From Escherichia phage vB_EcoM_ESCO45: 64,000 nucleotides of DNA. The stretch lies in sequence record OM386661.1, one strand, 5' to 3'. A program made the position numbers and the translations under genes. Positions 9,156-56,400 of this stretch are shown piece by piece. The notes under the pieces were generated by a model that worked only from the letters and a program-made list of their open reading frames with translations, ran no database searches and was not told the origin of the DNA. Numbering within the stretch: the first letter of the stretch is position 1; every line of letters starts with the position of its first letter.

Positions 9156-11510
9156 ATGGCAGATTACAAGTTGAGTGAATTAAACTCAATTGATACAATT
9201 CGTTCAGACGACCTTCTTCATGTCAGAGTTAAAAAGAGACCTGAAATGCTGGGTGATGAAGACCGTCGAATGACCTATCAAGACTTCTTAGCATCTTTTA
9301 AACTTGAAAGATTTGTTCAGATTGCTGGTAGCACTATGACGGGTGACTTAGGGATTGTTAAGTTACTTTATGGTGGTAAGGCAGTATTTGACCCAACAGG
9401 CTCTTCTGAGATTACTATTGGGGATGTTTTAAAGACTTTTAAAATTAACGCAAATGGTCTTAAACTAACTATTGCAGATGCTTCAAGGTCGGCAACTGTT
9501 TATCATACTTTGAATAAACCAAGTCCTAATGAACTTGGGATGAGAACTAATGAAGAAAATGATGCAAGATATGCAAGGCTTGCTGTAACAAACACATTCT
9601 CTGGGACTCAAAATATTCTCTCTGACAATGAAGCCCTTATTTTTAAGAATACCACACAAGGGATGCCACTCTATATTCGTGGTCAAGATGCAGATGGCAC
9701 TAACAGATGGTATCTAGGTAATGATAATAGAAACACAGACAACCTTGTTTTAAAAAACGTTAAATCTGGTGCATACGTAGCGATTTTAGCTAACCTAATC
9801 TCTGTGAATAAATCAATTCAAATCACTGGCCAAGTTCAACCTTCGGACTTCTCTAACTTAGATGCTAGATACTTCACTCAGACAGTAGCTAATCAGAGAT
9901 TTGCACAGTTAACTGCTGATAATACTTTTAGTGGCTCTAACACTTTCAACCAACTAAATGTTTTCAAAAAAGATGGTGAAGTAATTAGGCTACAGAATGC
10001 CAATGCTGCACAACCATTGTACATTAAAGCGATTGATAGCACAGGTGCCAACAGATGGTACATTGGTAATAATAATGGAGGTGATAACGTAGCTCTAGAA
10101 AACTACAAAACTAGTGGCAAAATTACTGTAGGGACAAGTGTTGATATCAATAAAACACTAACTGTAACTGGTCAAGTACAACCTTCCGATTGGGCTAACA
10201 TTGACTCTAGATACATTCCAGCAGCTACTTTGAGCAATCTTGCTAAGCTAAGCGATGTAAACACTTTCAGGTCTGCGCAAGTTATCAACCAGAATGGCTC
10301 ACTGTTACGGCTAAAGAACACCACACAAGATAATGAGCTATACATTGCTGGTCATAATGCTGATAATGCGAGAAGATGGTACATTGGTAGCGGGGAAAGA
10401 GACAACCCAACAAGGCTTATTATCCACAACGACAGAACTTTAACTACGATTTATATGCAAGATGATTTCTTGCTGAATAAAACTGTTAGAATTACTGGTC
10501 AAGTTCAACCATCTGATTGGTCTAACTTAGATGCTAGATACTTCACTCAGGCAGCAGCTAATCAGAGATTCATGGTTGCAGGTTCTACAGGAGAAGCTAC
10601 AGAGCAGAATGCAGATGGTGTGGCATGGAACGCTAAAACAGGCTTATATAATGTAACCTCAACAAATGCTGATTACACAGCACTTGTGTTTCAAATGTAT
10701 CAGGGGGTTAACTCTTCTACTGCCTGTGCGCAATTAAAGTTCCAGTATAAGAACGGTGGGATGTGGTACAGAACATCTGTAGATAGTAAAGGCTTTGAAG
10801 CTAAGTGGTCTAAGATTTACACAGAAGCACAGAAGCCAACACCTTCAGAGCTTGGTGCATACACTAAAGCAGAAACTGACCAGAAAATTGCACAGGCAGT
10901 AAGTGACTCTACAGACCTTAACAAAATCTATCCAGTAGGTATTGTAACGTGGTTTAACAGTAATGTTGACCCTAATACAGCACTGCCTGGTCTAACTTGG
11001 ACGTATCTGAACAACGGTGTTGGTAGAACTATCAGAATTGCAGCAGCAAACGGTTCAGATGTTGCTACAACAGGTGGTTCAGATTCTGTTACGTTAGCAG
11101 TTGGAAACTTACCTTCACACACTCATAGTTTCTCTGCGACTACCTCATCGTTTGACTACGGAACAAAAAACACTAACACGACTGGTGCTCACACCCACAC
11201 TGTAAGTGGTTCTGCTGCATCTGCTGGTAACCACAACCACGCTATCTCATGGATTGGTCAGAACTCTACACACTATTCTGGTGGTGGTGGTGGTAAAATC
11301 GGTACAGGACCGGGTTACACTGATTCTGCTGGTGCTCACACCCACACAATCTCTGGTACTGCTGCATCAAATGGTAACCATGCTCACAGTGTTGGTATTG
11401 GTGCTCACACCCATACAGTAAGCGGTAACACTGGCGGTACAGGTTCTGGTTCAGCATTTAGTGTTACTAACCAGTTCTATAAGTTAATGGCTTGGGTAAG
11501 AACTGCTTAA
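9156..11510 (+). CDS. long tail fibre protein with three internal ~115-aa repeats and His-x-His tip
   Basis: 784 aa; three copies of ITGQVQPSD(W/F)(S/A)N(L/I)D(A/S)RY...; C-terminal HTHS/AHTHT/NHNHA/NHAHS repeats homologous to tip of 7961-9109 product. Confidence 0.6.
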   Translation: MADYKLSELNSIDTIRSDDLLHVRVKKRPEMLGDEDRRMTYQDFLASFKLERFVQIAGSTMTGDLGIVKLLYGGKAVFDPTGSSEITIGDVLKTFKINANGLKLTIADASRSATVYHTLNKPSPNELGMRTNEENDARYARLAVTNTFSGTQNILSDNEALIFKNTTQGMPLYIRGQDADGTNRWYLGNDNRNTDNLVLKNVKSGAYVAILANLISVNKSIQITGQVQPSDFSNLDARYFTQTVANQRFAQLTADNTFSGSNTFNQLNVFKKDGEVIRLQNANAAQPLYIKAIDSTGANRWYIGNNNGGDNVALENYKTSGKITVGTSVDINKTLTVTGQVQPSDWANIDSRYIPAATLSNLAKLSDVNTFRSAQVINQNGSLLRLKNTTQDNELYIAGHNADNARRWYIGSGERDNPTRLIIHNDRTLTTIYMQDDFLLNKTVRITGQVQPSDWSNLDARYFTQAAANQRFMVAGSTGEATEQNADGVAWNAKTGLYNVTSTNADYTALVFQMYQGVNSSTACAQLKFQYKNGGMWYRTSVDSKGFEAKWSKIYTEAQKPTPSELGAYTKAETDQKIAQAVSDSTDLNKIYPVGIVTWFNSNVDPNTALPGLTWTYLNNGVGRTIRIAAANGSDVATTGGSDSVTLAVGNLPSHTHSFSATTSSFDYGTKNTNTTGAHTHTVSGSAASAGNHNHAISWIGQNSTHYSGGGGGKIGTGPGYTDSAGAHTHTISGTAASNGNHAHSVGIGAHTHTVSGNTGGTGSGSAFSVTNQFYKLMAWVRTA

Positions 11511-12193: not shown

Positions 12194-13093
12194 TTACTTA
12201 CCTACTGACAAAGGTGCTTCAATCTTTCCTGCATGTTGGTAGTTGTTAATGCCACCAATAAAATCACTTGCAGTAAGGTGTTTTAGGTCACTTAGTGTGT
12301 TAAGCTGTACACCAATCTCAAAAGTAGGTGCATGAAACTCTTCATTGTTCATCAGTTCATAAACCTGTTTCATATGGTTCTGATAAATCTGAGTATCTCC
12401 GAAGACGCCTATCAAATATCGTGGAGTGTATCCAGTCATCTTACAAAGAACTTCCAGAATAAAACCATAAGATGCAATGTTAAATGGAAGTCCTAAAAAG
12501 GTGTCTACAGAACGTTGATACCATTGTAAGTCAACTTCACCTTCGTTAGTGATATAAATCTGAAACAGAACATGACAAGGTGCTAAAGCCATCGAGTTGG
12601 CTGCAATATCTGCTGCATTCCAAGCATTAACAAGCATGTAACGGTCTGTGATATCACCTTTCATCTTCGTTACTAAGGTCTCTAGTTGGTCTACAACACA
12701 ACCATTATGACCTTCGAAGTTTCTCCACTGAACCCCGTAGATTCTACCACCTGCATCTTCTAGCCAGTCTTGTTCAGAAGAATAGTTAGAGCTTAACCAG
12801 CGTTTAAAATCATCTGACCAGATAGTCCAGCGTTCCCCATCATTTTCACCCCAAGTACGATAACGGAGTTCACCAAGCTTATTCTCACCGTTCAGGAACC
12901 ATAAAGCTTCTCCAATAACTTGCCGTGTAAACACCTGTTTAGATGTTAAGAGTGGGAAACCAGTACGCATATCAAAACGAAATTGTGGTGGAGCAAATGC
13001 AGAGATAACGTCTCCAGTTCGTGTAGTACGCAGTTCGCCAACGGATAAAACATGGTTCAGGATATTTTTGTAACTCAAATCAGCTTGTGACAT
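12194..13093 (-). CDS. td: thymidylate synthase (ThyA family)
   Basis: 299 aa; YGVQWR, DQL, ALAPCH (catalytic Cys), WYQRSVDTFLGLPFNIASY, GDTQIYQNH motifs in ThyA order; Asn in FNIASY indicates dUMP substrate. Confidence 0.8.
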   Translation of the reverse strand: MSQADLSYKNILNHVLSVGELRTTRTGDVISAFAPPQFRFDMRTGFPLLTSKQVFTRQVIGEALWFLNGENKLGELRYRTWGENDGERWTIWSDDFKRWLSSNYSSEQDWLEDAGGRIYGVQWRNFEGHNGCVVDQLETLVTKMKGDITDRYMLVNAWNAADIAANSMALAPCHVLFQIYITNEGEVDLQWYQRSVDTFLGLPFNIASYGFILEVLCKMTGYTPRYLIGVFGDTQIYQNHMKQVYELMNNEEFHAPTFEIGVQLNTLSDLKHLTASDFIGGINNYQHAGKIEAPLSVGK

Positions 13094-13094
13094 A

Positions 13095-13640
13095 TCAAAA
13101 GTGTCCTTTTACTTGTGGAACATAAATCTCAAAGGTTGCTTTACCATCATCTGAGGGTCTTGACTGCACCTTTGCAAATACACGGCTATCATACAGTTTA
13201 TCGAAGAAGTTTTCAAAAGGTAAATGCACAGTGGCCTCTTCAGTAACTTTATGGAAAACTGTATGGAAAACTACATCAGCATACGGCAAAGCATCGACAA
13301 GAACACCTGCACCACCAATTACAAAGACGTCTTCATCAATAGAGCTATCAAGATACTTCAAAAATGCTCCAAAGGACTCTTTACTAGCCTTAGCATACAT
13401 TACATCGTCTTTGTCAAAGTCTATCCCAAAATATGGCACAGAGTTTGTTAAGATAAGATTTTCACGTTCTGGTAAAGGCTTACTACCTAGAGTCTTAAAA
13501 GTCTCATTACCCATAACTACCAAGTTGTCTTTAGTGAGTCTCTTAAACTCTTGCATATCTTGCTTATGTCGAGGCCACGGCATACCAGTTGGAGTACCAA
13601 ACTCCCCATTTTCACCACTTGCAAAGATTAATTTAATCAT
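13095..13640 (-). CDS. frd: dihydrofolate reductase
   Basis: 181 aa; N-terminal IKLIFA...GMPW and VVMGNETFKTLG pattern typical of DHFR; adjacent to td as in many phages. Confidence 0.7.
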   Translation of the reverse strand: MIKLIFASGENGEFGTPTGMPWPRHKQDMQEFKRLTKDNLVVMGNETFKTLGSKPLPERENLILTNSVPYFGIDFDKDDVMYAKASKESFGAFLKYLDSSIDEDVFVIGGAGVLVDALPYADVVFHTVFHKVTEEATVHLPFENFFDKLYDSRVFAKVQSRPSDDGKATFEIYVPQVKGHF

Positions 13641-13897
13641 TTTGTAAACCCTTTCTTAATAAACCAGTTGATAACATTCTTCACAGCTTTATTGCTATGG
13701 TAGATTAAGTGTGGTGTAGGTTGGTATAAACCATAAGCCCAGAAAGCAATGATTTCATTACATCCTGTACACCTTGTACTCTCTTCAGCAATATGACCGT
13801 TGACTATTTCACTTACCTCACCTTGTAAGTCTGTACACCCACAATGCGGACATCGGATAGGTGTTCCGTCAGACTCATAGCAGTGTTCAATTTTCAT
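13637..13897 (-). CDS. small zinc-ribbon protein
   Basis: 86 aa with CPHCGC ... CTGCNE (paired CxxC). Confidence 0.4.
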   Translation of the reverse strand: MKIEHCYESDGTPIRCPHCGCTDLQGEVSEIVNGHIAEESTRCTGCNEIIAFWAYGLYQPTPHLIYHSNKAVKNVINWFIKKGFTK

Positions 13898-14137
13898 CTA
13901 TTTAACCTCAAAAACTGGCTCAAGAACCAATATAAAGTCTACACAGTCATCTTCTTCATCCAGAATACCATCAAAGTTCTTAGGAACGAAGTCGAAGAGG
14001 CTCATAACAAAACCAGCTTCGTCGCCACATGTAACTATTTTAAAAGATGCTTCATTCTCATACTGTGAAGCCATAAGCTTTTTAAGCATCTCTTTAAGGA
14101 AATCTGCATGAGCATCTTGTAAGTAGACATCAATCAT
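13898..14137 (-). CDS. hypothetical acidic protein
   Basis: 79 aa ORF in co-directional array. Confidence 0.35.
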   Translation of the reverse strand: MIDVYLQDAHADFLKEMLKKLMASQYENEASFKIVTCGDEAGFVMSLFDFVPKNFDGILDEEDDCVDFILVLEPVFEVK

Positions 14138-14511: not shown

Positions 14512-14841
14512 TTAGTCTGCCAACCTTAAATTGAAATTAACACCAAATTTTTCACACACTCCCAACATATACTCAAGGGAAACATTCCCAGTGAGGTGGA
14601 TTATGTTGGATACACGAGCCTGAGAGATACCACAAATTTTAGCAACTTGCTCTTGAGAAAGACCTCTGGATTTAATCTCTCTCTTAAAACGATGTGCAAC
14701 GAAATCTCTCATTTCGTCTACATCCATTGGACAAATATAACTCTCCATTTCAGCCTCTCTATCAGCCTCCCAATCATCTTGTGGGGCATAAGGGTCAAAA
14801 ACCTCATTCATCTTTCTTCTTCCGTTTGCGTGAAGTGTCAA
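14512..14841 (-). CDS. HTH (XRE-like) transcriptional regulator
   Basis: 109 aa; C-terminal LSQEQVAKICGISQARVSNI helix-turn-helix signature. Confidence 0.55.
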   Translation of the reverse strand: MTLHANGRRKMNEVFDPYAPQDDWEADREAEMESYICPMDVDEMRDFVAHRFKREIKSRGLSQEQVAKICGISQARVSNIIHLTGNVSLEYMLGVCEKFGVNFNLRLAD

Positions 14842-15401: not shown

Positions 15402-15901
15402 AATGACCTCAAAGTTATATTAAATTTTGTATTACGTTGAGTATAAAAATAAGCTATAACACCTGACTTGTCAACAGATTTTATAGCTTATTTGGCAGAT
15501 TTTTTATAAGGCTACTGCCATCCTTCCATACCAAACCTCACCTGACCTCGCCTAACCCTACCTTACCCCACCATACAGCACCTTATTAAAACACCCTGTT
15601 TAAAGACCTTTTAAAAAGGTAAGTCTCATTTTAATGTAGCTGAGACTAACTACCCATACCTCACCCTACCAGACCCTACCAGACCAGACCTTACCCTACC
15701 AGACCCTACCGAACATCACTTAAAAACCCTCTTAGAAGACTCTTAAGTGATGTAATCGAATTTTAATGTAGCTCCGATTAACTACCCATACCTCACCTCA
15801 CCCAACCATACCATGCCTTGCCAGACCGCACCTTACCTCATTAAAAGACCCTCTTAAAAGACCTTTTAAAAAGGAGCCTCCGAAGAGGCTACCTAGTCAA
15901 C
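15402..15901 (-). repeat. structured intergenic region 1: G-depleted C/A-rich tracts alternating with conserved hairpin modules
   Basis: ACCCTACCAGACCCTACC at 15663-15680 and 15693-15710; hairpin AGTCTCA-N12-TGAGACT at 15622-15647; variant hairpin with compensatory changes at 15754-15779; 10-bp inverted repeat CATCACTTAA/TTAAGTGATG at 15714-15752. Confidence 0.7.
15862..15892 (-). terminator. rho-independent terminator (minus strand) after gene 15902-16342
   Basis: AGCCTC-cgaa-GAGGCT hairpin with T5 run on minus strand. Confidence 0.55.
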
Positions 15902-16344: not shown

Positions 16345-17351
<1,007 letters not shown>

Positions 17352-19859: not shown

Positions 19860-22540
19860 GTCTTACCTACCTTACCAGTGCCTGTAACAAGCGTCTTACT
19901 CTTTAATCCAAGATTTTTTGATGCTTGACCATACATTCTATCAATAATCTCCTTAACATCTGGTACATCTTTTGTTGGAACCTCTAAAGAAACTTCGTCG
20001 TGGTAACTACAGACCCATCTAGCACCAATAGCTGGTTTCCTACCATTTAGGACTGTAAGTTTTCGCTCTGTTAACTCTCTGTTAGCCAAGTTAATACCCT
20101 CATTCTGCACCTGCGCCTCACTGCCCATAAGTGTGTAATTCAATAACTTATGTGGAGATTTACACCATAACCACGCTCCAGCAACTTTGATATAACCACC
20201 TTTGGCAATTGCAGAAGTTTTTCCAAAAACCTCTTCAAGTGCTTTCTTAGTTGCTTTGAAGTCCTCCTCTAGTCTATCGAGCAGCTTTTTAATCTTAGGT
20301 AGACGCACAAAGTAAGTTTGTTTAGTCAATGCACCTTCTTCCGTAGATGATGCCTTGATAGTTTTCGCGAACTTCTCATCTCCGGCTCCAAATAACAGGG
20401 CGTAGATGCCATTTTTGCTCTTCTTACGGCCTTTTGTAATCTCGTGAAGAAGTTCCTCATCCTGTGTCTCCCTACAACGAACAATATCTTCTTCTTTGTT
20501 CAGACCAAAGTAAATACTGTTCAGTGTATGTGCATCAGTCCCTGTGTAGACTTCATAGAGGTCATTTTCAGCATCATAACGCAGATACTTGTCAGTTTCT
20601 GGGTTAAGATACTTGTCAAGATGCTTACAGTAGTATCTACCATCATCTTGCTTAGTGAACTCTACTGACTCTTTACCCTCAGTTACCGCTTTAGTGAAGT
20701 CTTCATCACCCATAAAGTTACAAAGAAGAACTAGCTGGGCTGAGTTTTGGTCTACGGAGATGATATCTGTACCATCTTCACAAGTCCACACCTCCCTCAT
20801 AGGTGCTCCATAAACAGCAGCACCAGACGGTACGTTTACAATACCATATTGTGTCATACGTCCAGTTGAAGTACCAAACACCATTGCACCAGCACTAAGG
20901 CGACCATCTGGACGAATCTGGTTCAACCAACCTTTTTCATCATCCTTTGAGTTCTCAATAGTTCTGCGTCGGTGCATCAAAGTATAGTATTTAGCAATCT
21001 TCTGTCCAAGTTCACCTTCAATCGTATCATAAGATGATTCAGTAAGTTTTGGTGAAGTACGGATTAAGCAAGGCTCAAGCAAATCTGTGTATTTCTTCAC
21101 AGACCAGTTATGCTCAATGTACTGGACACCTTCATGTTCAACATAACTCAAACCACACTGCTCAACCATTTCCTGCCACTTAGGATGTTTTGTAATCATC
21201 TTTTTATTGTCTTTGAAACGACAAACTTTGACAGGGCGACCGTCTGAGTCTTTCTTGTAGTTCCAGTCATCTGGAATCCAACCAACTGATTTCAAGTAGT
21301 CTTTAACAACTGCTACCTGAGTCATACGAGAAACTTCAAACTCAATTGGTGTATACGGTGCATCAATCAAACCTGTGTAGCGACTTGACTCAAGTTCAAA
21401 GTGGTTAACAACGTGGCTGTTATAATACTTCACAGTTTTGACTGTTTTTACTGGCTTCCAGTCTTTGCACTTCTTACCAATCTTTGCATTCAACTCGTTG
21501 CAAATTGCACGAGCATCCTTCATTGCTACAAAACCTTCCTTGTACTCTTCACCAGTTACAGAGTTGGTTGGTGTATAGCAATTCCTTTTTTCAATGTTAA
21601 AAATCTTTGTAGTTGGCTTACCAAATGGTTTGATTTCGTATGTCTGCACCTCACCATTACGTACCTGCTGACGATACTTTGTCTTAGGGTACTTGGTAAT
21701 TCTTTTCAGTCCATCTGCATGACCAAATGTTTCAACATACTCATTCCAAGCTTTTGCAAACTCTTCTCCAGTGACTTTACCTTTGGTCTTAATAGTTGGA
21801 GGAAGATGTGGTTCAACTTCTGAAGCAAGCTCATTAGTCAACTTGTCAAGTTCCTTTACATGGAACTCCATAAGCTCTTTATCAGCTTTCCAGCCATTGA
21901 TAGCTTGTTGACTCATCCAGAAAGATGTTTCTTTAGCTCGCATGTAGGTTTCATAAGTGTCTATGCCACACTTCTTAAGCTTGAGATACTCGTTATCAAG
22001 TGCCCGTTTAGTTTTGGCGTTAATACGGATATCATCTACAACACGAGTGAAGATTTCTGCATTCCACACACCCCAATGCTCAATCTCTGGCTTACGAACA
22101 CCAACACGAGCACCCCATGCAGCCAAACCATGAGCACCTTTATAACCCTTTGGAGTTGGCCTATCCATCCACTGAACACGAGACTGGATAAGAGAATCCT
22201 GAAAGAAATTACTCCACGGCTTACATTTTGGATTATCAAAGTTCCATAAATCAGGTGCAATGTGATTGAAAACCCACCAGTCATAACCGAGACCATTATG
22301 GATGCAAAGACGTTTCGCCTTTAACGCAAACTCAACACCTTCACGTAAACCACCTTTAAGGTACTTAGTGTACTTGTGACCGAGGATAGGCTCATCTGTA
22401 AAGACCCATACAGGTGGCTCTTCATCGTCAGATTTATAGTCTGCGAAAGCCATTACGTGCACTTTAGTGAACTCAAGGAGCAAACCATCAGTTTCTGTAT
22501 CGCCAACTAAATGTAAGTTTTTAAAATCTACGTTTTCCAT
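19841..22540 (-). CDS. DNA polymerase, family A, with 3'-5' exonuclease domain
   Basis: Exo I motif VGDTETDG near N-terminus; C-terminal motif C YHDE and ...GKTWYAVH terminus; start set at Met11 (22540) which has RBS GAGGGAG; longest ORF starts 22570. Confidence 0.85.
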   Translation of the reverse strand: MENVDFKNLHLVGDTETDGLLLEFTKVHVMAFADYKSDDEEPPVWVFTDEPILGHKYTKYLKGGLREGVEFALKAKRLCIHNGLGYDWWVFNHIAPDLWNFDNPKCKPWSNFFQDSLIQSRVQWMDRPTPKGYKGAHGLAAWGARVGVRKPEIEHWGVWNAEIFTRVVDDIRINAKTKRALDNEYLKLKKCGIDTYETYMRAKETSFWMSQQAINGWKADKELMEFHVKELDKLTNELASEVEPHLPPTIKTKGKVTGEEFAKAWNEYVETFGHADGLKRITKYPKTKYRQQVRNGEVQTYEIKPFGKPTTKIFNIEKRNCYTPTNSVTGEEYKEGFVAMKDARAICNELNAKIGKKCKDWKPVKTVKTVKYYNSHVVNHFELESSRYTGLIDAPYTPIEFEVSRMTQVAVVKDYLKSVGWIPDDWNYKKDSDGRPVKVCRFKDNKKMITKHPKWQEMVEQCGLSYVEHEGVQYIEHNWSVKKYTDLLEPCLIRTSPKLTESSYDTIEGELGQKIAKYYTLMHRRRTIENSKDDEKGWLNQIRPDGRLSAGAMVFGTSTGRMTQYGIVNVPSGAAVYGAPMREVWTCEDGTDIISVDQNSAQLVLLCNFMGDEDFTKAVTEGKESVEFTKQDDGRYYCKHLDKYLNPETDKYLRYDAENDLYEVYTGTDAHTLNSIYFGLNKEEDIVRCRETQDEELLHEITKGRKKSKNGIYALLFGAGDEKFAKTIKASSTEEGALTKQTYFVRLPKIKKLLDRLEEDFKATKKALEEVFGKTSAIAKGGYIKVAGAWLWCKSPHKLLNYTLMGSEAQVQNEGINLANRELTERKLTVLNGRKPAIGARWVCSYHDEVSLEVPTKDVPDVKEIIDRMYGQASKNLGLKSKTLVTGTGKVGKTWYAVH

Positions 22541-22600
22541 TTTTACTCCCTCTACAATCATTAACCTCATACATTACTGCAAAAAATTATAAAAAGCAAG

Positions 22601-22629
22601 TTGACAATGTACTTGACAAGGTGTTAATC
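22601..22629 (+). promoter_or_regulatory. candidate sigma70-like promoter in divergent control region
   Basis: Tandem TTGACA boxes (22601, 22614); TTGACA-N17-TTAATC; weak -10. Confidence 0.3.
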
Positions 22630-22797
22630 TTTGCGAAGTGGGTTTTTACTTAAAAGGTTACTTAACAGTTTAACTATACAGATACTTTAAAACTCTTAAA
22701 AGATTATTTAATAGCTTTTAAAAAGCTTTAAAGTATAACGTATAGAATACGTTAAGATAAAAGATTAAAACTTAATAGTTACTTAAAAGAGGCTTAC

Positions 22798-23221: not shown

Positions 23222-24022
23222 ATGAATATCAATGTAGAAAAGATGCTTGAAGAAAAGGGTATTGACGAAGCGTTCTTAATCAATGCCGTAGAAAGTATGG
23301 CTATGATTCTTCGTGGGAACAACTACACAGAACAGTTTATGCCTGCAAGCTACAATCTGCCTAAAGACAAGTCTGATAACGATGCTTTTGCAGAACAGGT
23401 TAACATGATGTTGACAGACACTACACTTGCTCTGGCATCTATTGCGGTTGGTGTTGATGCACTTGCTGAGTTCATTTTTTATGAAATGCAAAAGAATGAC
23501 TATATCAGGATGTCAGACGAAGATAAGGAACTGCTGCTGACTAAGGACACTGATTTCATTATTGATACGCTTATCTCATCAACGAGTGCTGTTATGGCTG
23601 TTCTTGAGAAGCGTATGGAAGAAAAGCTGTCACGATATGAAAAGCTTGATTGGGGTGTAGAAGAACTAAACCCACGAATCAAAGAGATTATCCAGCAAAC
23701 CAAAGAGTCTTTGGAAGAAGCTGTGGAGAATGACTTTGTAGCTGATATAGAGCCGCTTCAGGTGAAAGTTGCACTGATGATTCCAGCTATCTCTACAATG
23801 ATGAATATCGTTGCACTAATCCAACTTTCACAGGTGATGGGTGTGAGTATGGAGTTCATTGAGGAGATGACTGGTGGTGTTAGTATGCAAGCAATCAATG
23901 ATGTTTTGGTGAACATTGGTGCTTCAATCATTGAAGAGAAACTACGCATTAACTTCGGTGATGATTTTGTGAAGCAACTCTCAGCTATGGCTGAAAAAGA
24001 GTCTGCTGAGCAACTGCACTAA
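23222..24022 (+). CDS. hypothetical protein
   Basis: 266 aa acidic ORF; terminator-like hairpin at 24041-24066. Confidence 0.4.
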   Translation: MNINVEKMLEEKGIDEAFLINAVESMAMILRGNNYTEQFMPASYNLPKDKSDNDAFAEQVNMMLTDTTLALASIAVGVDALAEFIFYEMQKNDYIRMSDEDKELLLTKDTDFIIDTLISSTSAVMAVLEKRMEEKLSRYEKLDWGVEELNPRIKEIIQQTKESLEEAVENDFVADIEPLQVKVALMIPAISTMMNIVALIQLSQVMGVSMEFIEEMTGGVSMQAINDVLVNIGASIIEEKLRINFGDDFVKQLSAMAEKESAEQLH

Positions 24023-50090: not shown

Positions 50091-50092
50091 TA

Positions 50093-50178
50093 AAGTGCTT
50101 TACAAGGTGCTTATAGTTCGATAAAGTAAGCACCAGATAAAGAGCTTTATCACTAAACCTAAACTGGAGAACTTAAAA
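50093..50178 (+). promoter_or_regulatory. repeated promoter/stem-loop/RBS cassette, family A copy 1
   Basis: AAAGTGCTTTACAAGGTGCTTATAGTTCGATAAAGTAAGCACCAGATAAAGAGCTTTATCAC...GGAGA...ATG; contains TTTACA-N17-TAAAGT, hairpin GGTGCTTA/TAAGCACC and palindrome GATAAAGAGCTTTATC. Confidence 0.55.
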
Positions 50179-50559: not shown

Positions 50560-50561
50560 TA

Positions 50562-50647
50562 AAGTGCTTTACAAGGTGCTTATAGTTCGATATAGTAAGC
50601 ACCAGATAAAGAGCTTTATCACTAAACCCTAGACTGGAGATTCAAAA
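50562..50647 (+). promoter_or_regulatory. family A cassette copy 2
   Basis: Near-identical to copy 1 (one substitution ATAAAG to ATATAG). Confidence 0.55.
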
Positions 50648-51871: not shown

Positions 51872-51957
51872 AGTGCTTTACAAGGTGCTTACAGTTCGAT
51901 AAAGTAAGCACCAGATAAAGAGCTTTATCAAATAACCCTAAACTGGAGAACTTAAAA
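51871..51957 (+). promoter_or_regulatory. family A cassette copy 3
   Basis: Same module, CTTACAGTTCG variant. Confidence 0.55.
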
Positions 51958-52662: not shown

Positions 52663-52667
52663 CTGAT

Positions 52668-52756
52668 AAAGTGCTTTACAAGGTGCTTATAGTTCGATAA
52701 AGTAAGCACCAGATAAAGAGCTTTATCACTCAATCCTTAAACTAGGAGATTCAAAA
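52668..52756 (+). promoter_or_regulatory. family A cassette copy 4
   Basis: Same module as copy 1. Confidence 0.55.
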
Positions 52757-53299: not shown

Positions 53300-53467
53300 A
53301 AACCTATACAATCACCTTATAAACACTATTTAGCACCTTGTAGGTGCTTCTAGAGTGCTTTAATTATGCTTACAACCGTTTACCTCATCCTTTCCACCTG
53401 TAATGGGGGGGGTATTTATGTGACTTTAAGATAAAATCATCATTAAAAAAGACTAGACAAGCCAGAT

Positions 53468-53548: not shown

Positions 53549-53890
53549 ATGGCTTATGTAACCGTAGTTACCGATAAAGAGGATTCATCTTGGTCAACTC
53601 AAGTAAGTGACAAGATGACACCTATGCAGTGCCTAAAATACTTTGAGCAATGGAATAAAGGCGAGGATGTAAGTCCCTTCCAAGTAATGCAAATTATACA
53701 TGTGGACAATGAAGGCAATAAAACGGTTTTAAATAGTGAGTACTATGCAAACCGATTTGAAACGAGATGTAAAACGATGAAGCTTCTACGTGAATCCGGC
53801 TATTCTCATATCGCCGCGTTAATTTGGGATGACTTGCTAAAAAGTCAACGTATCAGCTACGTAAAACCTGAAAAAATATTTATAAGCTAA
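53549..53890 (+). CDS. hypothetical small protein
   Basis: 113 aa; preceded by family-B cassette. Confidence 0.45.
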   Translation: MAYVTVVTDKEDSSWSTQVSDKMTPMQCLKYFEQWNKGEDVSPFQVMQIIHVDNEGNKTVLNSEYYANRFETRCKTMKLLRESGYSHIAALIWDDLLKSQRISYVKPEKIFIS

Positions 53891-53923
53891 TCAATAACTT
53901 ACAAAAAACTTTCAAAAAAGTAT

Positions 53924-53952
53924 TGACAACGCCCCTTGACATTGATAATGTT
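53924..53952 (+). promoter_or_regulatory. sigma70-like promoter
   Basis: TTGACA-N17-TAATGT; second TTGACA 7 nt downstream. Confidence 0.4.
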
Positions 53953-54019
53953 GTTCGAGGGGGTTTATCTAAAAGGGATTAACTTAAAAGATTTCTTTAT
54001 AGATAAACTTAAAAAATTA

Positions 54020-54111
54020 CTTGCAATCAGATATCAAACCAAGTAAATTACTAACCAACGGGAGGGATGACCTCCCCACTACATAAAACCCTTAAACTAG
54101 GAGATTCAAAA
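54020..54111 (+). promoter_or_regulatory. family B cassette copy 4
   Basis: TTGCAA-N17-TAAATT + GGGAGGGATGACCTCCCC hairpin + RBS. Confidence 0.5.
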
Positions 54112-54642: not shown

Positions 54643-54695
54643 ATTGTCAATCAACGGGGAGGGTATGACCTCCCCACTAAATAAAACCCTATTGA
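54633..54695 (+). promoter_or_regulatory. orphan family B stem-loop copy (no downstream gene)
   Basis: TAAATTGTCAATCAACGGGGAGGGTATGACCTCCCCACTAAATAAAACCCT without following RBS/ATG. Confidence 0.5.
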
Positions 54696-56400
54696 TTCGA
54701 TAGAGTCTATCCCATAGGTGCTTTTTTACGTCTATCAAATCCTTATGCAATCCCTTTCCCTCACCTTTCTAGAATCTCCCCACTGATTCAATAGAGTTTA
54801 TCTCATACCTTAAAAAGCAATAACTCTATAGCTTACCCTATAGCCTTTTATCAAATCAACTTAAATATAAGCCCATAACCCGAGAGGGAAGGGCAACCCT
54901 TTAAACGCCCTATAACGCCCTATAACAGCATTATCAATATAACTTAAGGGATTGCATTACCTCACCTTAAAAAGCACTTTATAAGGCTTTACAGAGCCTT
55001 AAAAGAATCTTTTAAGGGTATAAGCTTATAGGCTGACTAGTATCATGTGAACTGCTAAAAAGTGCTTGATAGTGTCTTAAAAGTATGTTATAGGTGCTAT
55101 AAAGTTACTCAAAAGCTACTCAAAAGTTACTCAAAAGTTACGTAAATGCTAGCCCCCTTAACATTTTCTTAACAATTTCTTAACAAATCCTACATAGTTA
55201 TACTTTCAAGACACTTGTTAACAACTTGTTAGACCCTTGTTAAATCTCTGTTAAGACCACGTAAAAGCTATGTAAAAGCCTTTGGCATAGCCTTAAAAGC
55301 ACTGTAAAGCACTATAAAGAGCTATTCATACATTTGAGGGGCAAATACTAGGGAGAGACTAAAAAGAGCCTATACAGAGCTATAGAGAGCTTTTAAAAGG
55401 TATGTTTAAGGTATCACTAAGAAAGGAAAGGGAACGATAAGAAAAGAGTAGTGACCATGTTAATAGCTTGTTAAAAAGGTTAAATACTTGTTAGGAACTT
55501 GTTAATTATCTAATTGGTATTGTTACCAATCCCTAACAAAATAACCCTTTAAAATTAACTTGTTAGCTCTTGTTAATCATCTGTTAAACCTCTGTAAAGC
55601 CTATGTATCACTTGTTAGAGACTTGTTACCCTCTTGTTAAAACTATTAAGAATCTGTTAAGACCTTTGGAGAGATGTTAAGAGCTTGAGAGAGTTGTTAA
55701 GAGTTTGTTAATGATATTTTAAAATTTTGCAAAGGGGATGTTACAGAGCTGTTAAGGGCTACCAAACAGATATACATCCTAATCAGATATTTTTCAGTTC
55801 CTTCAAAGACCCTAAAAAATGACTTGACAGTCCTATTTTATAAAAAAATTAAAATTCTGAATAATTACCTATACAGTCTTTCTAAAATACAGGCATAAAC
55901 AGGCTTATAAGATACCTTGTTAGTACCGTGTTAGGCCTTGTGAGATAAGGTCTGTAAAGATATTCCTGTTAAGTTTGTTAAAACAGTCTATATAGAGGCT
56001 TAGTAGTGCCTAGTGAACACCTATAGAGAGTGTCATAGCTAACATAGAGATTAAGAGGTGTATAGGAGCTTCTAAGAGGGTATAGAGGGATGGTTAAGGT
56101 GATTGTATAGGTTATTAAGAAGGCTTGTTAGAAGAGTGTTTAGAGGGCTTGTTAGAGGGCTTGTTAGAAGGGTTATACAGAGGGGCTACTAAGACCACTA
56201 GATAGTTACTAAGATACTATATAATACTATATAACTATATAGAGAGTAAGATTAAGAAGGTTGTTAAGAAGGATAGATATTTTATTCACATATGATGGTG
56301 ACCCAGAGGTTGGGACAACCGATAAAATTTTATAAAAATTATAAATTTCGTAAATTTTACTCAATAAAAAGCCCCCAATTAAGGAGGCTCTTAAGATATT
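54643..56400. repeat. 1.75-kb ORF-free repeat-dense region (TTGTTA-core degenerate repeats and short tandem repeats)
   Basis: No ORF of 60 aa or more in any frame; many CTTGTTA(A/G), TGTTAAG copies (55200-55700); tandem CTCAAAAGYTAC x3 (~55096-55135), GGGCTTGTTAGA x3 (~56108-56160), CGCCCTATAA x2 (54907-54925), ACTATATA x3 (~56205-56235). Confidence 0.7.

Follow-up and report, generated by a model that had tools for sequence, protein, structure and literature searches.

Candidate divergent promoters and a putative base-paired leader between the polymerase and replication operons of a Felix O1-like phage

The AT-rich gap between the DNA polymerase gene and the replication-gene operon of this phage is best explained as the principal divergent control region in phages of the Felix O1 type. 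The two palindromes located in the gap are best read as parts of a base-paired, possibly two-state, leader RNA behind a strong promoter pair, a reading that we hold with about even confidence. Positions refer to the window, which is the whole 64-kb stretch of DNA that was analysed.

The window phage was Felix O1-like (Felixounavirus), with 99% identity to Escherichia phage ESCO56 and 98% to Felix O1, and the gap corresponded to that between genes 96 and 97 of Felix O1. It is bounded by the following features:

22540 to 22538, minus strand: probable start codon (ATG) of the DNA polymerase gene, as annotated in Suspvirus and Mooglevirus records
22546-22552, minus strand: polymerase Shine-Dalgarno sequence GAGGGAG (CTCCCTC on the plus strand)
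22788-92 and 22798, plus strand: Shine-Dalgarno sequence AGAGG and ATG of the first plus-strand gene, encoding a 140-aa gp97-like protein (phrog_4039)

In the alignment, indels separated ATG 22540 from the upstream in-frame ATGs at 22561 and 22570, and ATG 22540 is most likely the true polymerase start; with this start, the gap extends over 22541-22797 (257 bp). The first-pass annotation had described an AT-rich control region between divergent genes, which was borne out by a GC content of 0.24, with the polymerase on the minus strand and gp97 on the plus strand. Gap identity to SUSP2, Sf13, and Moogle, from three genera, was 82-87%, compared to 53-64% for third codon positions in the genes on either side, and this conservation indicates selection. 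The gp97 protein had no Pfam match, and its AlphaFold model (pLDDT 72) had no PDB fold match at E < 0.1; gp97 was rejected as a possible regulator, since the model shows a simple helical hairpin without informative structural matches. The Felix O1 genome paper assumed divergent promoters at this locus, recognised none, and stated temporal control of the phage as unknown (Whichard et al. 2010, PMC3185647). A full-text literature search on the Ounavirinae revealed no promoter, transcription start site (TSS), RNA-seq/transcriptome or cleavage study beyond the 2010 genome paper. By RT-PCR, Felix O1 ORFs 96-99 and 101 peaked at 25 min. Replication-gene mRNA is maximal in mid-infection.

Predicted back-to-back sigma-70 promoters are conserved across the subfamily. 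In the window, this arrangement comprised:

22601-22630, plus strand: rightward promoter P_R1, with -35 TTGACA (22601-06), an 18-bp spacer and an extended -10 TGtTAATCT (22622-30)
22581-22600, plus strand: A-rich, UP-element-like stretch AAAAAATTATAAAAAGCAAG upstream of the P_R1 -35
22571-22599, minus strand: P_L, candidate leftward promoter of the polymerase operon, with -35 TTGCTT (22599 to 22594), a 17-bp spacer and -10 TAATGT (22576 to 22571)

P_R1, whose spacer contained a second TTGACA (22613-18), scored 11.1 bits, making it the top sigma-70 site in the region, and was the best sigma-70 match in nine of nine lineages scanned, including Yersinia, Pectobacterium, and Erwinia phages (11-14 bits). 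A simple promoter scanner had missed it because TAATCT agrees with TATAAT at only three of six positions. Within the A-rich stretch (22581-22600), AAAAAGCAAG was invariant in the close clade, and the same A-tract was found upstream of all three double-TTGACA modules. The other two are paralogous promoter-plus-leader modules present in each genome (at window 53923 and Felix O1 21515), which sit before tRNA/structural genes and small early genes, not before replication genes. P_L scored weakly, at 4.5 bits. A leftward -35/-10 pair with its -35 abutting the rightward -35 recurred in all nine lineages scanned, with the -10 variants TAGTGT, TAGGGT, and TAAGGT in relatives and counterparts such as TTGTGT-17-TAGACT in Yersinia and TTGACC-17-CATACT, at 10.6 bits, in Arno162. 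Other promoter candidates were rejected: a phage-wide 'TATAGAATA' class had no further intergenic instance, and the T4-late-like TATAAATA gave only scattered matches, one of them directly behind the gene 40/41 promoter -10 in Felix O1.

Transcription from P_R1 is predicted to start at ~22637, which would place the following leader ahead of the first gene:

22637-22797, plus strand: untranslated leader (~160 nt) of the gp97 / dNMP kinase / primase-helicase operon

The leader carried 10 WWAHAG units (CTTAAAAG, CTTAACAG, CTATACAG, CTTTAAAG, and TTTAATAG) spaced by 11-13 nt. These were strand-specific (10 vs 1.9 expected, with 3 on the opposite strand), short, self-complementary and A/U-rich, of the CUUAAAAG type. 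In the window, CTTAAAA occurred 17 times in 5.3 kb of non-coding DNA vs 18 times in 58 kb of coding DNA, and the unit also formed perfect palindromes elsewhere, e.g., CCTTAAAAGAATCTTTTAAGG at 54997. Iteron-type repeats were not found, the units being heterogeneous 8-mers instead of near-identical 17-22-bp direct repeats, and TRF, which reported just 2.2 copies in Arno162, detected no array in the gap of the window phage. The gap contained no intrinsic terminator, both palindromes having 2 G/C per arm and lacking a T run, and Rfam 15 gave no match to it at E <= 1.

The units are predicted to pair with one another, forming an extended, imperfect hairpin whose internal loops follow one another at intervals of about one helical turn:

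22661-22756, plus strand: long imperfect hairpin of 96 nt with four 6-7-bp helices
22661-22666 with 22751-22756, plus strand: helix H1, CTTAAC (repeat unit 2) as 5' strand, 100% paired
22674-22679 with 22740-22745, plus strand: helix H2, CTATAC (repeat unit 3) as 5' strand, invariant in the close clade
22685-22691 with 22727-22733, plus strand: helix H3, CTTTAAA with TTTAAAG, extended to 22682-91 / 22727-36 in the MFE structure
22696-22702 with 22715-22721, plus strand: helix H4, TTAAAAG as 5' strand
22703-22714, plus strand: apical region ATTATTTAATAG, the site of indels and sequence replacement

RNAalifold recovered H1-H4, and 98.5% of the cells in these helices were paired vs at most 58% in slid controls. 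Substitutions were concentrated at predicted unpaired positions, with 8 of 52 paired columns variable compared to 20 of 45 unpaired columns (Fisher p = 0.003). Indels fell in the apical loop, where phages outside Felixounavirus had a 1-2-nt deletion and the L092 clade a different, longer sequence. Two of the six H1 pairs were changed on both sides (A-U to U-A; C-G to U-A), and in the L092 clade both strands of H2 differed yet still paired in the model-fitted alignment. H3 and H4 never varied and are therefore uninformative for or against the structure. A covariance model detected the element in the L092 clade (E 1e-5 to 3e-6), with H3 and H4 kept, and gave no significant match in distant lineages (E 0.3-3). 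Relative to composition-matched shuffles, the window leader had a fold z-score of -2.8, a value that, like those that follow, is inflated, because the units are self-complementary by nature and some pairing and negative z-scores follow from this. Eleven of 13 leaders had z-scores of -1.5 to -5.1, with -1.8 to -5.1 in close-clade phages and L092 and -1.5 to -3.2 in leaders of the distant Yersinia, Pectobacterium, L087, and L089 lineages; the two paralogous leaders reached -2.9 to -3.9, and the two Kolesnikvirus (+0.2, +0.5) and L096 (0.0) leaders folded no better than shuffles. The MFE structure had ~37 pairs over 96 nt, broken every 6-10 bp, with A/U-rich and weak helices. Rejected pairings were a single 27-nt-arm hairpin (22682-22708/22710-22736), whose covariation was not beyond that of shuffles, and the MFE pairing of 22638-47 with the ribosome-binding site at 22788-97, which was broken in non-Felix lineages and showed no covariation.

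Both palindromes would be pieces of the 3' half of this hairpin:

22713-22727: palindrome 1, AGCTTTT-A-AAAAGCT, with perfect 7-bp arms and a 1-nt centre
22736-22754: palindrome 2, TAACGTAT-AGA-ATACGTTA, with perfect 8-bp arms, also read as 22737-22753, AACGTAT-AGA-ATACGTT
22743-22758, plus strand: deeply conserved core TAGAAT-N4-TAAGAT, in which 22753-58 is an inverted repeat unit

Their presence at 22713-22727 and 22737-22753, as first described, was confirmed, the arms being perfect. Among 5000 dinucleotide-preserving shuffles of 22541-22797, the probability of finding at least one perfect inverted repeat (arms of at least 7, spacer of at most 4) was 0.285, and that of at least two was 0.097, or 0.022 when at least 2 G/C per arm were required. 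Neither full palindrome recurred within the 64-kb window. The palindromes are weakly significant on composition, and the real evidence for them is conservation. Within palindrome 1, 22715-21 would form the 3' strand of H4 and the remainder would belong to the internal loop that precedes the H3 3' strand. Its arms showed no covariation, its register shifted in Sf13-type and L086-type phages, one Felixounavirus contig had a 1-nt insertion in it, and as a local RNA hairpin it reached -3.5 kcal/mol (z = -0.3). On these comparative grounds palindrome 1 is an instance of the self-complementary repeat unit and no element of its own, and its proposed role as an operator was not borne out.

Palindrome 2 may either fold on itself (conformer A) or supply the 3' strands of H2 (22740-45) and H1 (22751-56; conformer B). 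In the local helix, two of seven pairs were changed on both sides by the same two events as in H1; conservation in relatives had been suggested as a check on the palindromes, and this dyad is indeed maintained by compensatory substitutions. The right arm covaried both with its own left arm and with the unit at 22661-66, 90 nt upstream, and the linked states CTTAAC/AAC/GTT, CTTTAC/TAC/GTA, and CTTTAT/TAT/ATA had no exception in 50 sequences (22 distinct). Two events account for this covariation, each consisting of three coordinated substitutions. In a random-substitution simulation, the probability per branch that the arms were hit yet fully paired was 0.009 and 0.007 for one helix, and 1e-4 and 5.5e-5 for both helices. 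Judged from these substitutions, the symmetry of palindrome 2 is selected; the apparent covariation rests on the two evolutionary events in the close clade plus the model-fitted H2 alignment. Because 22751-53 is shared by H1 and the local hairpin, it has two mutually exclusive predicted partners, both kept by compensation. Conformers A and B were predicted to lie within ~5 kcal/mol of each other, with B favoured in Felix/Susp types and A in Moogle types, and in Felixounavirus the local hairpin was predicted at <2% occupancy. The -10-like hexamer TAGAAT reported within palindrome 2 was likewise found, at 22743-22748. It appeared as TAGAAT, TATAAT, TAGATT or TAGTAT across Yersinia, Pectobacterium, Erwinia, and metagenomic lineages, as TAACAT in Moogle, and as TATATAAAA in the L092 clade, which has no TAnnnT there. 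In this phage the hexamer had no -35 at 16-18 bp, the -35-like TTAAAA being 19 bp upstream; the distance was 17 bp in Sf13 and 18 bp in Arno162.

Under the preferred reading, the weak-looking leftward promoter would serve the polymerase operon, and the very strong P_R1, with its UP-like A-tract, consensus -35 and extended -10, would drive the replication-gene operon through transcripts that begin with the structured leader. The pairing would act in RNA, and pairing in single-stranded DNA would give the same signal. The structure may influence how the replication-gene mRNA is processed (e.g., by RNase III), how stable it is or how it is translated. In a more specific form, which we regard as improbable, the leader would be a two-state RNA switch in which 22751-53 pairs with the unit at 22661-66 or with 22737-39, as reflected in three-way compensatory evolution, and which sets the timing or level of the replication operon. 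Selection between the states would fall to a phage or host factor, to RNase III cleavage or to co-transcriptional folding, and the same unit vocabulary would act alike at the two other major promoters.

The alternative of a protein-binding site concerns palindrome 2 and a regulator encoded to the left of the gap:

14512-14811, minus strand: Xre-type HTH_3 regulator, 99 aa counted from MNEVFDP, tested as a binder of the palindromes and unsupported

The gene, originally listed at 14512-14841, does encode a genuine Xre-type HTH_3 protein. It is unlikely, in our judgement, that palindrome 2 is a duplex operator for a dimeric protein, whether a phage factor other than or besides the HTH protein or a host factor, whose binding over the -10 of a secondary, -35-poor promoter would shut that promoter, block read-through from P_R1 and give timing. 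The dyad, with 7-8-bp arms and a 3-bp centre, is of operator size (14-20 bp), has a typical 7-3-7 form with symmetric changes in both half-sites, and overlaps a -10-like hexamer whose conservation reaches well past that of the dyad and which gains a usable -35 in Sf13 (TTAAAA-17, 6.7 bits) and Arno162 (TTAACA-18, 8.5 bits). The HTH gene and the dyad are both missing from Kolesnikvirus, Yersinia, and Pectobacterium relatives, the other abundant palindrome GATAAAGAGCTTTATC is found in the HTH-less phiEa104 and is thus not the clade-specific target of the HTH protein, and ORF96 and ORF97 are maximal in mid-infection. However, the L092/L086 lineage has an HTH protein with the same recognition helix, ISQ(A/G)(R/Q)VSNI, without palindrome 2 (ERZ1027012 NODE_34 and four Logan contigs), leaving the HTH-operator reading unsupported. 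In Moogle the half-site changed without a matching change in the recognition helix, which differs from that of Felix O1 only by A to S, a variant shared by SUSP2 with its half-site core unchanged. The site is single-copy; a look-alike at 53847-63 (1 mismatch in 12), ~60 bp upstream of the paralogous -35, is absent from Felix O1 and therefore probably due to chance. In Felixounavirus the -35-like TTAAAA is at a poor 19-bp spacing, and the L092 clade lacks TAnnnT at the hexamer position. The same substitutions also occur in the unit at 22661-66, 90 bp off, so that an operator would need repeated specificity changes; covariation of the right arm with this unit is more readily understood as nucleic-acid base pairing than as a protein operator. 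An EMSA of the HTH regulator on the palindromes would likely be negative. Of the initial interpretation as a whole, the divergent control region, the TAGAAT hexamer, the HTH gene and the palindrome 2 dyad stand, and palindrome 1 and the link to the HTH protein do not.

It is also improbable that the dyads are functionless and that the region is kept for its promoters, for A/T DNA that is UP-like or curved and for a translational leader, rich in A/U, of CTTAAAAG-type units, with palindromes arising from self-complementary units and the arm-to-arm 'covariation' from quasipalindrome template switching in replication. Palindromes of this size occurred in 29% of shuffles; palindrome 1 drifts, tolerates an insertion and does not surpass shuffles as a hairpin; non-coding DNA throughout the window is enriched in the unit, which also forms other perfect palindromes (such as that at 54997); and Kolesnikvirus leaders keep the units without a fold signal. 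Template switching, however, cannot easily account for the matched change in a unit lying 90 nt off and leaves the both-sided H2 changes of the L092 clade unexplained, and substitutions and indels avoid the predicted helices, with joint random-substitution probabilities of ~1e-4 per branch. We consider it very unlikely that the region serves as an origin of replication that combines a promoter with an unwinding element, as do T4 ori(uvsY)/ori(34) and the T7 primary origin. On this view, transcription from P_R1 would open the A/T-rich array, the displaced plus strand or an R-loop would fold through the same helices, and an initiator or the primase-helicase might be bound by the repeat units. 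Such an origin would suit a strong promoter followed by 160 bp of non-coding DNA at 24% GC between the polymerase and primase-helicase genes, as well as the directional repeat units; the base-pairing evidence is equally valid for single-stranded DNA, and T4, with its multiple origins, would be a parallel for the three modules per genome. Cumulative GC skew is lowest at 22-23 kb, but this switch coincides with the switch in gene orientation and is therefore uninformative. Against an origin, the units lack the near-identity of iterons, no initiator was identified (the gp97 model offering a plain helical hairpin), and the other two modules are not before replication genes.

The preferred reading of a paired leader has parallels in other phages. 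T7 R0.3, upstream of gene 0.3, and the lambda N-leader hairpin are RNase III processing hairpins in early leaders. Like these, the element of the window phage would be a long imperfect hairpin with internal loops, in a leader between strong host-type early promoters and the first gene of an early or middle operon, and it shares with them maintenance by compensatory change. Unlike them, it has shorter helices (6-10 bp) that are nearly all A/U, a competing local hairpin and no sequence similarity. A 17-19-bp dyad over a -10-like hexamer, divergent promoters and a phage-encoded HTH_3 protein recall the Cro/CI (Xre) operators; in contrast to those, the site is single-copy, the HTH gene lies 8 kb away inside the polymerase operon, the HTH protein occurs without the dyad and with its recognition helix unchanged, and the dyad covaries with a distant unit. 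The phi29 A2c/A2b-A3 switch region has sites for protein p4 and a -35-less late promoter beside consensus early promoters. By analogy, compact A/T-rich divergent promoters, repeated A/T motifs and a -35-poor promoter are common to both regions, whereas the motifs differ and no p4 or p6 homologues are known for the window phage.

A lambda nut reading was considered for ACTCTTAAAAGATTA (22691-22705), which resembles the lambda nutL boxA, GCTCTTAAAAATTAA, and which is followed after 7 nt by a 15-nt palindrome of boxB size. It was rejected, as the 'CTC' that defines boxA, within the 'GCTC' of its core GCTCTT(T)A, varies in the clade (ACTC, ACCC, AGAC, AGTC, ATTC, TCTC, GCTC) and only CTTAAAAG is fixed; unlike boxB, the palindrome has a loop that is not GNRA-like and is not conserved as such. 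T4 middle promoters consist of a MotA box TGCTTtA, 12 bp and TAnnnT. A similar arrangement is formed by AAAAGCTTTA (22721-30), 12 bp and TAGAAT (22743-48), with 11-12 bp in SUSP2, Sf13, and Moogle. This reading was rejected because GCTTTA is lost in Yersinia, Pectobacterium, and Erwinia relatives that retain TAGAAT; wherever else 'TGCTT' occurs in this phage, it simply belongs to the surroundings of an ordinary -35 box. No MotA/AsiA-type factors were reported in the Felix O1 genome paper (PMC3185647).

These results provide testable coordinates for the divergent promoters of the polymerase and replication-gene operons, and a conserved, putatively structured leader with a related form at two other major promoters. 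Felix O1 is a classical phage for Salmonella typing and biocontrol. RNA-end mapping and structure probing of the leader would be more informative than EMSA of the HTH protein on the palindromes. If the two-state pairing were true, the leader would be a compact riboregulator in a lytic phage without known transcription-modifying factors.

The sequenced region was 99% identical to that of Escherichia phage vB_EcoM_ESCO56 and about 98% identical to that of Salmonella phage Felix O1, and the ∼258 matching records belonged to Felixounavirus, Suspvirus and Mooglevirus. An additional Ounavirinae-like lineage (the NODE_34 lineage, L086 and L092–L096) was recovered from ENA ERZ1027012 NODE_34 and the Logan assemblies SRR22802239, SRR30543553, SRR12736308 and SRR27912342; no GenBank relative exceeded about 70% nucleotide identity to it in this region. 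It has a Felix O1-like gene order and encodes an HTH homologue, and in L096 the polymerase gene is split by an Endonuclease_7 insertion. The gap lies between two divergent gene blocks:

Left operon, minus strand: DNA polymerase first, then HNH endonuclease, small ORFs, DNA ligase, HTH protein, DHFR and thymidylate synthase
Right genes, plus strand: 140-aa function-unassigned protein (phrog_4039; gp97-like), 266-aa 'minor tail protein', dNMP kinase, primase-helicase and more genes

The 'minor tail protein' label (PHROG 4251; 23222–24022) looks doubtful, because the protein had no Pfam match and its gene sits between gp97 and the dNMP kinase, within a replication/nucleotide-metabolism operon. 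The gap corresponds to that between genes 96 and 97 of Felix O1, where divergent early promoters were presumed and none was reported found, temporal control being described as unknown (PMC3185647). GenBank records place the polymerase start at different in-frame ATGs, 22570, 22561 or 22540 (window 22538–22570), of which only 22540 has a Shine-Dalgarno sequence (GAGGGAG) and cross-genus conservation. The gene most likely starts there, as other genera annotate, so that the gap would span 22541–22797.

A position-weight promoter scan covering nine lineages on both strands found a single standout sigma-70 site in each (11–14 bits), with a leftward -35/-10 pair immediately back to back with the rightward -35 in every lineage scanned:

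22601–22630, plus strand: promoter P_R1, TTGACA (22601–22606), 18-bp spacer, TGtTAATCT (22622–22630)
22599 to 22571, minus strand: candidate promoter P_L, TTGCTT, 17-bp spacer, TAATGT

The leftward pair was weak in the window phage and reached 10.6 bits in Arno162; its predicted transcript start lies downstream of the polymerase ATGs at 22570 and 22561. Yersinia, Pectobacterium and Erwinia relatives carry a counterpart of P_R1 (TTGACA-N17/18-TAnnnT, with TG ahead of TAnnnT in the Yersinia and Pectobacterium phages), and the A-tract upstream is invariant. Transcription from P_R1 is predicted to start at about 22637, leaving a leader of ∼160 nt before the first plus-strand gene.

The module of A-tract, TTGACA, six bases, CTTGACA and -10 was found twice more per genome, at window 53923 and in the divergent gap between genes 40 and 41 of Felix O1, where the promoter is P41 of the genome paper (PMC3185647). 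These extra modules (window 53923–54066; Felix O1 21515–21664 and 11269–11458) continue into a leader of CTTAAAAG units, and the one in the gene 40/41 gap heads the tRNA/structural block. A second perfect TTGACA (22613–22618) is kept within the spacer of all three strong promoters, in a context (CTTGACAAGG) typical of ordinary -35 boxes in the window phage; no -10 at a usable distance was found for it or its equivalents in the other two modules. Comparison with the related sequence L087 suggests that the -10 was moved by an 11–12-bp deletion, a new -35 having arisen upstream. Directly after the -10 of the gene 40/41 gap promoter, which heads the late/structural block, TATAAATA (Felix O1 21544–21551) equals the T4 late-promoter consensus; this may be a coincidence, and Felix O1 has no gp55-like factor according to its genome paper (PMC3185647).

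The first-pass annotation had described two palindromes in the gap, the second containing a TAGAAT hexamer, and both were confirmed, palindrome 1 at 22713–22727 (AGCTTTT-A-AAAAGCT) and palindrome 2, the dyad, at 22737–22753 ((T)AACGTAT-AGA-ATACGTT(A)), as was the hexamer. Such palindromes are not rare in shuffled A/T-rich DNA: at least one occurred in 28.5% of dinucleotide shuffles of the gap and at least two in 9.7%, or in 2.2% when two G/C per arm were required, so composition alone makes no case for function. Gap identity between the window phage and SUSP2, Sf13 and Moogle was 82–87%, compared with 53–64% at third codon positions in the flanking polymerase and gp97 genes, and therefore nearly the whole gap, not the palindromes alone, is under purifying selection. 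Palindrome 2 had all seven pairs intact in every close-clade sequence, with both-sided changes in two of them (one from A-T to T-A, the other from C-G to T-A). Palindrome 1 shifts register with no both-sided change among the relatives compared: Sf13-type sequences have a mismatch in it, the palindrome having moved half a base to CTTTTAAAAG, and it lies in another register again in the NODE_34 lineage (ATCTT-TT-AAGAT), and contains a 1-nt insertion in one Felixounavirus contig. As a local hairpin, palindrome 1 was not better than shuffles.

The phage HTH regulator, put forward as a possible binder of both palindromes, is a genuine HTH_3 protein (14512–14811). By tblastn it occurred in essentially the same 258 records as the dyad, which at first looked supportive of an operator; none was found in Erwinia, Pectobacterium or Yersinia relatives, nor any HTH domain among the small proteins that the polymerase operon of phiEa104 encodes. 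The recognition helix is SQ(A/S)RVSNI throughout the dyad-bearing clade, and the A/S variant does not track the half-site, S being present in both Moogle (ATGTAT) and SUSP2 (ACGTAT). A fixed helix should mean a target common to all HTH-bearing phages, and by these comparisons palindrome 2 does not fit that role: the NODE_34 lineage has a homologue (58–62% identity) with the same recognition helix, and keeps the double-TTGACA promoter, but is without palindrome 2. Operators for this regulator are thus not supported. The other conspicuous palindrome, GATAAAGAGCTTTATC, downstream of four repeated early promoters, was ruled out as its clade-specific target by its occurrence in the HTH-less phiEa104.

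Further repeats were observed elsewhere. The GATAAAGAGCTTTATC palindrome is part of a ∼88-nt unit in four to five copies (50091–50178, 50560–50647, 51872–51957, 52663–52756, degenerate near 53300), each preceding a small early gene and consisting of a promoter (GTGCTTTACAAGG...N17...TAAAGT) with a hairpin in its spacer, followed by the perfect palindrome; conservation of unit and palindrome extends to Erwinia phage phiEa104. At 53847–53863, where an ORF has its 3' end, AACGTATCAGCTACGTA looks like palindrome 2, with one mismatch among the 12 arm positions; from there it is ∼60 bp downstream to the -35 (53923) of the second double-TTGACA promoter, and Felix O1 lacks the look-alike. Downstream of that promoter module, convergent gene blocks are separated by 1584 bp free of ORFs (54643–56226; Felix O1 12305–13928), where short same-strand repeats are dense: CTTGTTA is present 16 times (none on the opposite strand). 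Tandem repeats of TTACTCAAAAG, CTTAAAAG, TTCTTAACAA and GTAAAAGC also occur there, as does a perfect palindrome of 21 bp, CCTTAAAAGAATCTTTTAAGG (54997–55017). The stretch might be transcribed as a long non-coding RNA, or might serve in replication or packaging. Inside the minus-strand operon, a non-coding unit of ∼250 nt is present in about three copies (15402–15901 and 17100–17351), each with a run of 5–6-nt periodic 'NNACC' repeats (CCTCACC, CCCTACC, CCAGACC, CCATACC), flanked by CTCTTAAAAGACCTTTTAAAAAGG and the hairpin AGTCTCATTTTAATGTAGCTGAGACT.

The leader (22637–22797) contains ten plus-strand WWAHAG units (CTTAAAAG, CTTAACAG, CTATACAG, CTTTAAAG, TTTAATAG and similar), against 1.9 expected from shuffles and three on the opposite strand, spaced 11–13 nt apart, with similar arrays in every relative. 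CTTAAAA is among the most over-represented 7-mers of the phage's non-coding DNA and is strand-specific (17 in 5.3 kb non-coding vs 18 in 58 kb coding). The units are nearly self-complementary and so able to pair with each other, and RNAalifold applied to 15 distinct close-clade leaders predicted four nested helices, together a 96-nt imperfect hairpin (22661–22756):

H1: 5' strand 22661–22666, 3' strand 22751–22756
H2: 5' strand 22674–22679, 3' strand 22740–22745
H3: 5' strand 22685–22691, 3' strand 22727–22733
H4: 5' strand 22696–22702, 3' strand 22715–22721

In H1–H4, 98.5% of cells were paired, compared with at most 58% when partners were slid. Variable columns were fewer inside helices (8/52) than outside (20/45; p = 0.003), and indels lay in the apical loop. 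Unit 2 and the left and right arms of palindrome 2 occurred in only three linked states, with no exception in 50 sequences (22 distinct):

CTTAAC / AAC / GTT: Felixounavirus
CTTTAC / TAC / GTA: Suspvirus, L029, Sf13, L034
CTTTAT / TAT / ATA: Moogle, Sf14, Sf17, Maleficent, HP1, KMM2, L036, L085

H1 shares the two both-sided changes of palindrome 2, because columns 22751 and 22753 sit in both pairings. With observed substitution numbers placed randomly, the simulated chance of one helix being hit yet fully paired was 0.009 and 0.007 on two branches, and that for both helices together 1e-4 and 5.5e-5, probabilities that are rough as exact values because uniform rates were assumed. A covariance model of H1–H4 matched the NODE_34 lineage (E 1e-5 to 3e-6), in which H3 and H4 are unchanged and the loop is replaced; both strands of H2 differ there and still pair (AUAUAA:UUAUAU and (C)UUUAU:AUAAA(A)), in a model-fitted alignment biased towards the model. 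The fold z was -2.8 for the window leader, -1.5 to -5.1 in 11 of 13 leaders, about 0 in L096 and two Kolesnikvirus leaders, and -2.9 to -3.9 for the two paralogous leaders. In the module at 53923 (Felix O1 11269), an A-to-G difference between the window phage and Felix O1 converts a U-A pair to U.G, compatible with plus-strand RNA.

In this picture, palindrome 1 would consist of H4's 3' strand and the internal loop that follows it, and palindrome 2 would contain the 3' strands of H2 and H1. In predicted folds, a local hairpin of palindrome 2 is an alternative that competes with the helices H1 and H2, the long-range form being favoured by 2–5 kcal/mol in Felix-/Susp-type sequences and the local form by 4–8 kcal/mol in Moogle-type sequences. 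The best-supported reading, to which we give about an even chance, makes the palindromes parts of a leader that is conserved, base-paired and possibly two-state, and that follows two conserved sigma-70 promoters set back to back.

Alternatively, palindrome 2 could be a DNA operator for some dimer, over a secondary promoter. TAGAAT-N4-TAAGAT is conserved well beyond the dyad-bearing phages; among Yersinia, Pectobacterium, Erwinia and metagenomic lineages the hexamer takes the forms TAGAAT, TATAAT, TAGATT or TAGTAT, whereas Moogle has TAACAT and the NODE_34 lineage TATATAAAA. A -35-like hexamer stands 17–18 bp away only in Sf13 and Arno162, and at 19 bp, within palindrome 1, in the window phage. 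A secondary, factor-dependent promoter may exist here and would fit the mid-infection maximum of ORFs 96–99 and 101, although in several lineages a predicted helix has the hexamer bases as one of its strands; the operator is unlikely. That the palindromes are by-products of the repeat units, which can pair among themselves, seems somewhat less probable still in view of the linked states, and a promoter-linked replication origin in the gap is the most doubtful of these readings.

For the base-paired leader, the nearest parallels are the hairpins for RNase III and translation control in T7 and lambda early leaders, cleavage and effect being putative here. It belongs to no curated RNA family, and no description was found in the literature searched. 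In kind the element is ordinary, consisting of promoters and a structured 5' leader; that the three-way covariation points to an actual RNA switch is a minority possibility.
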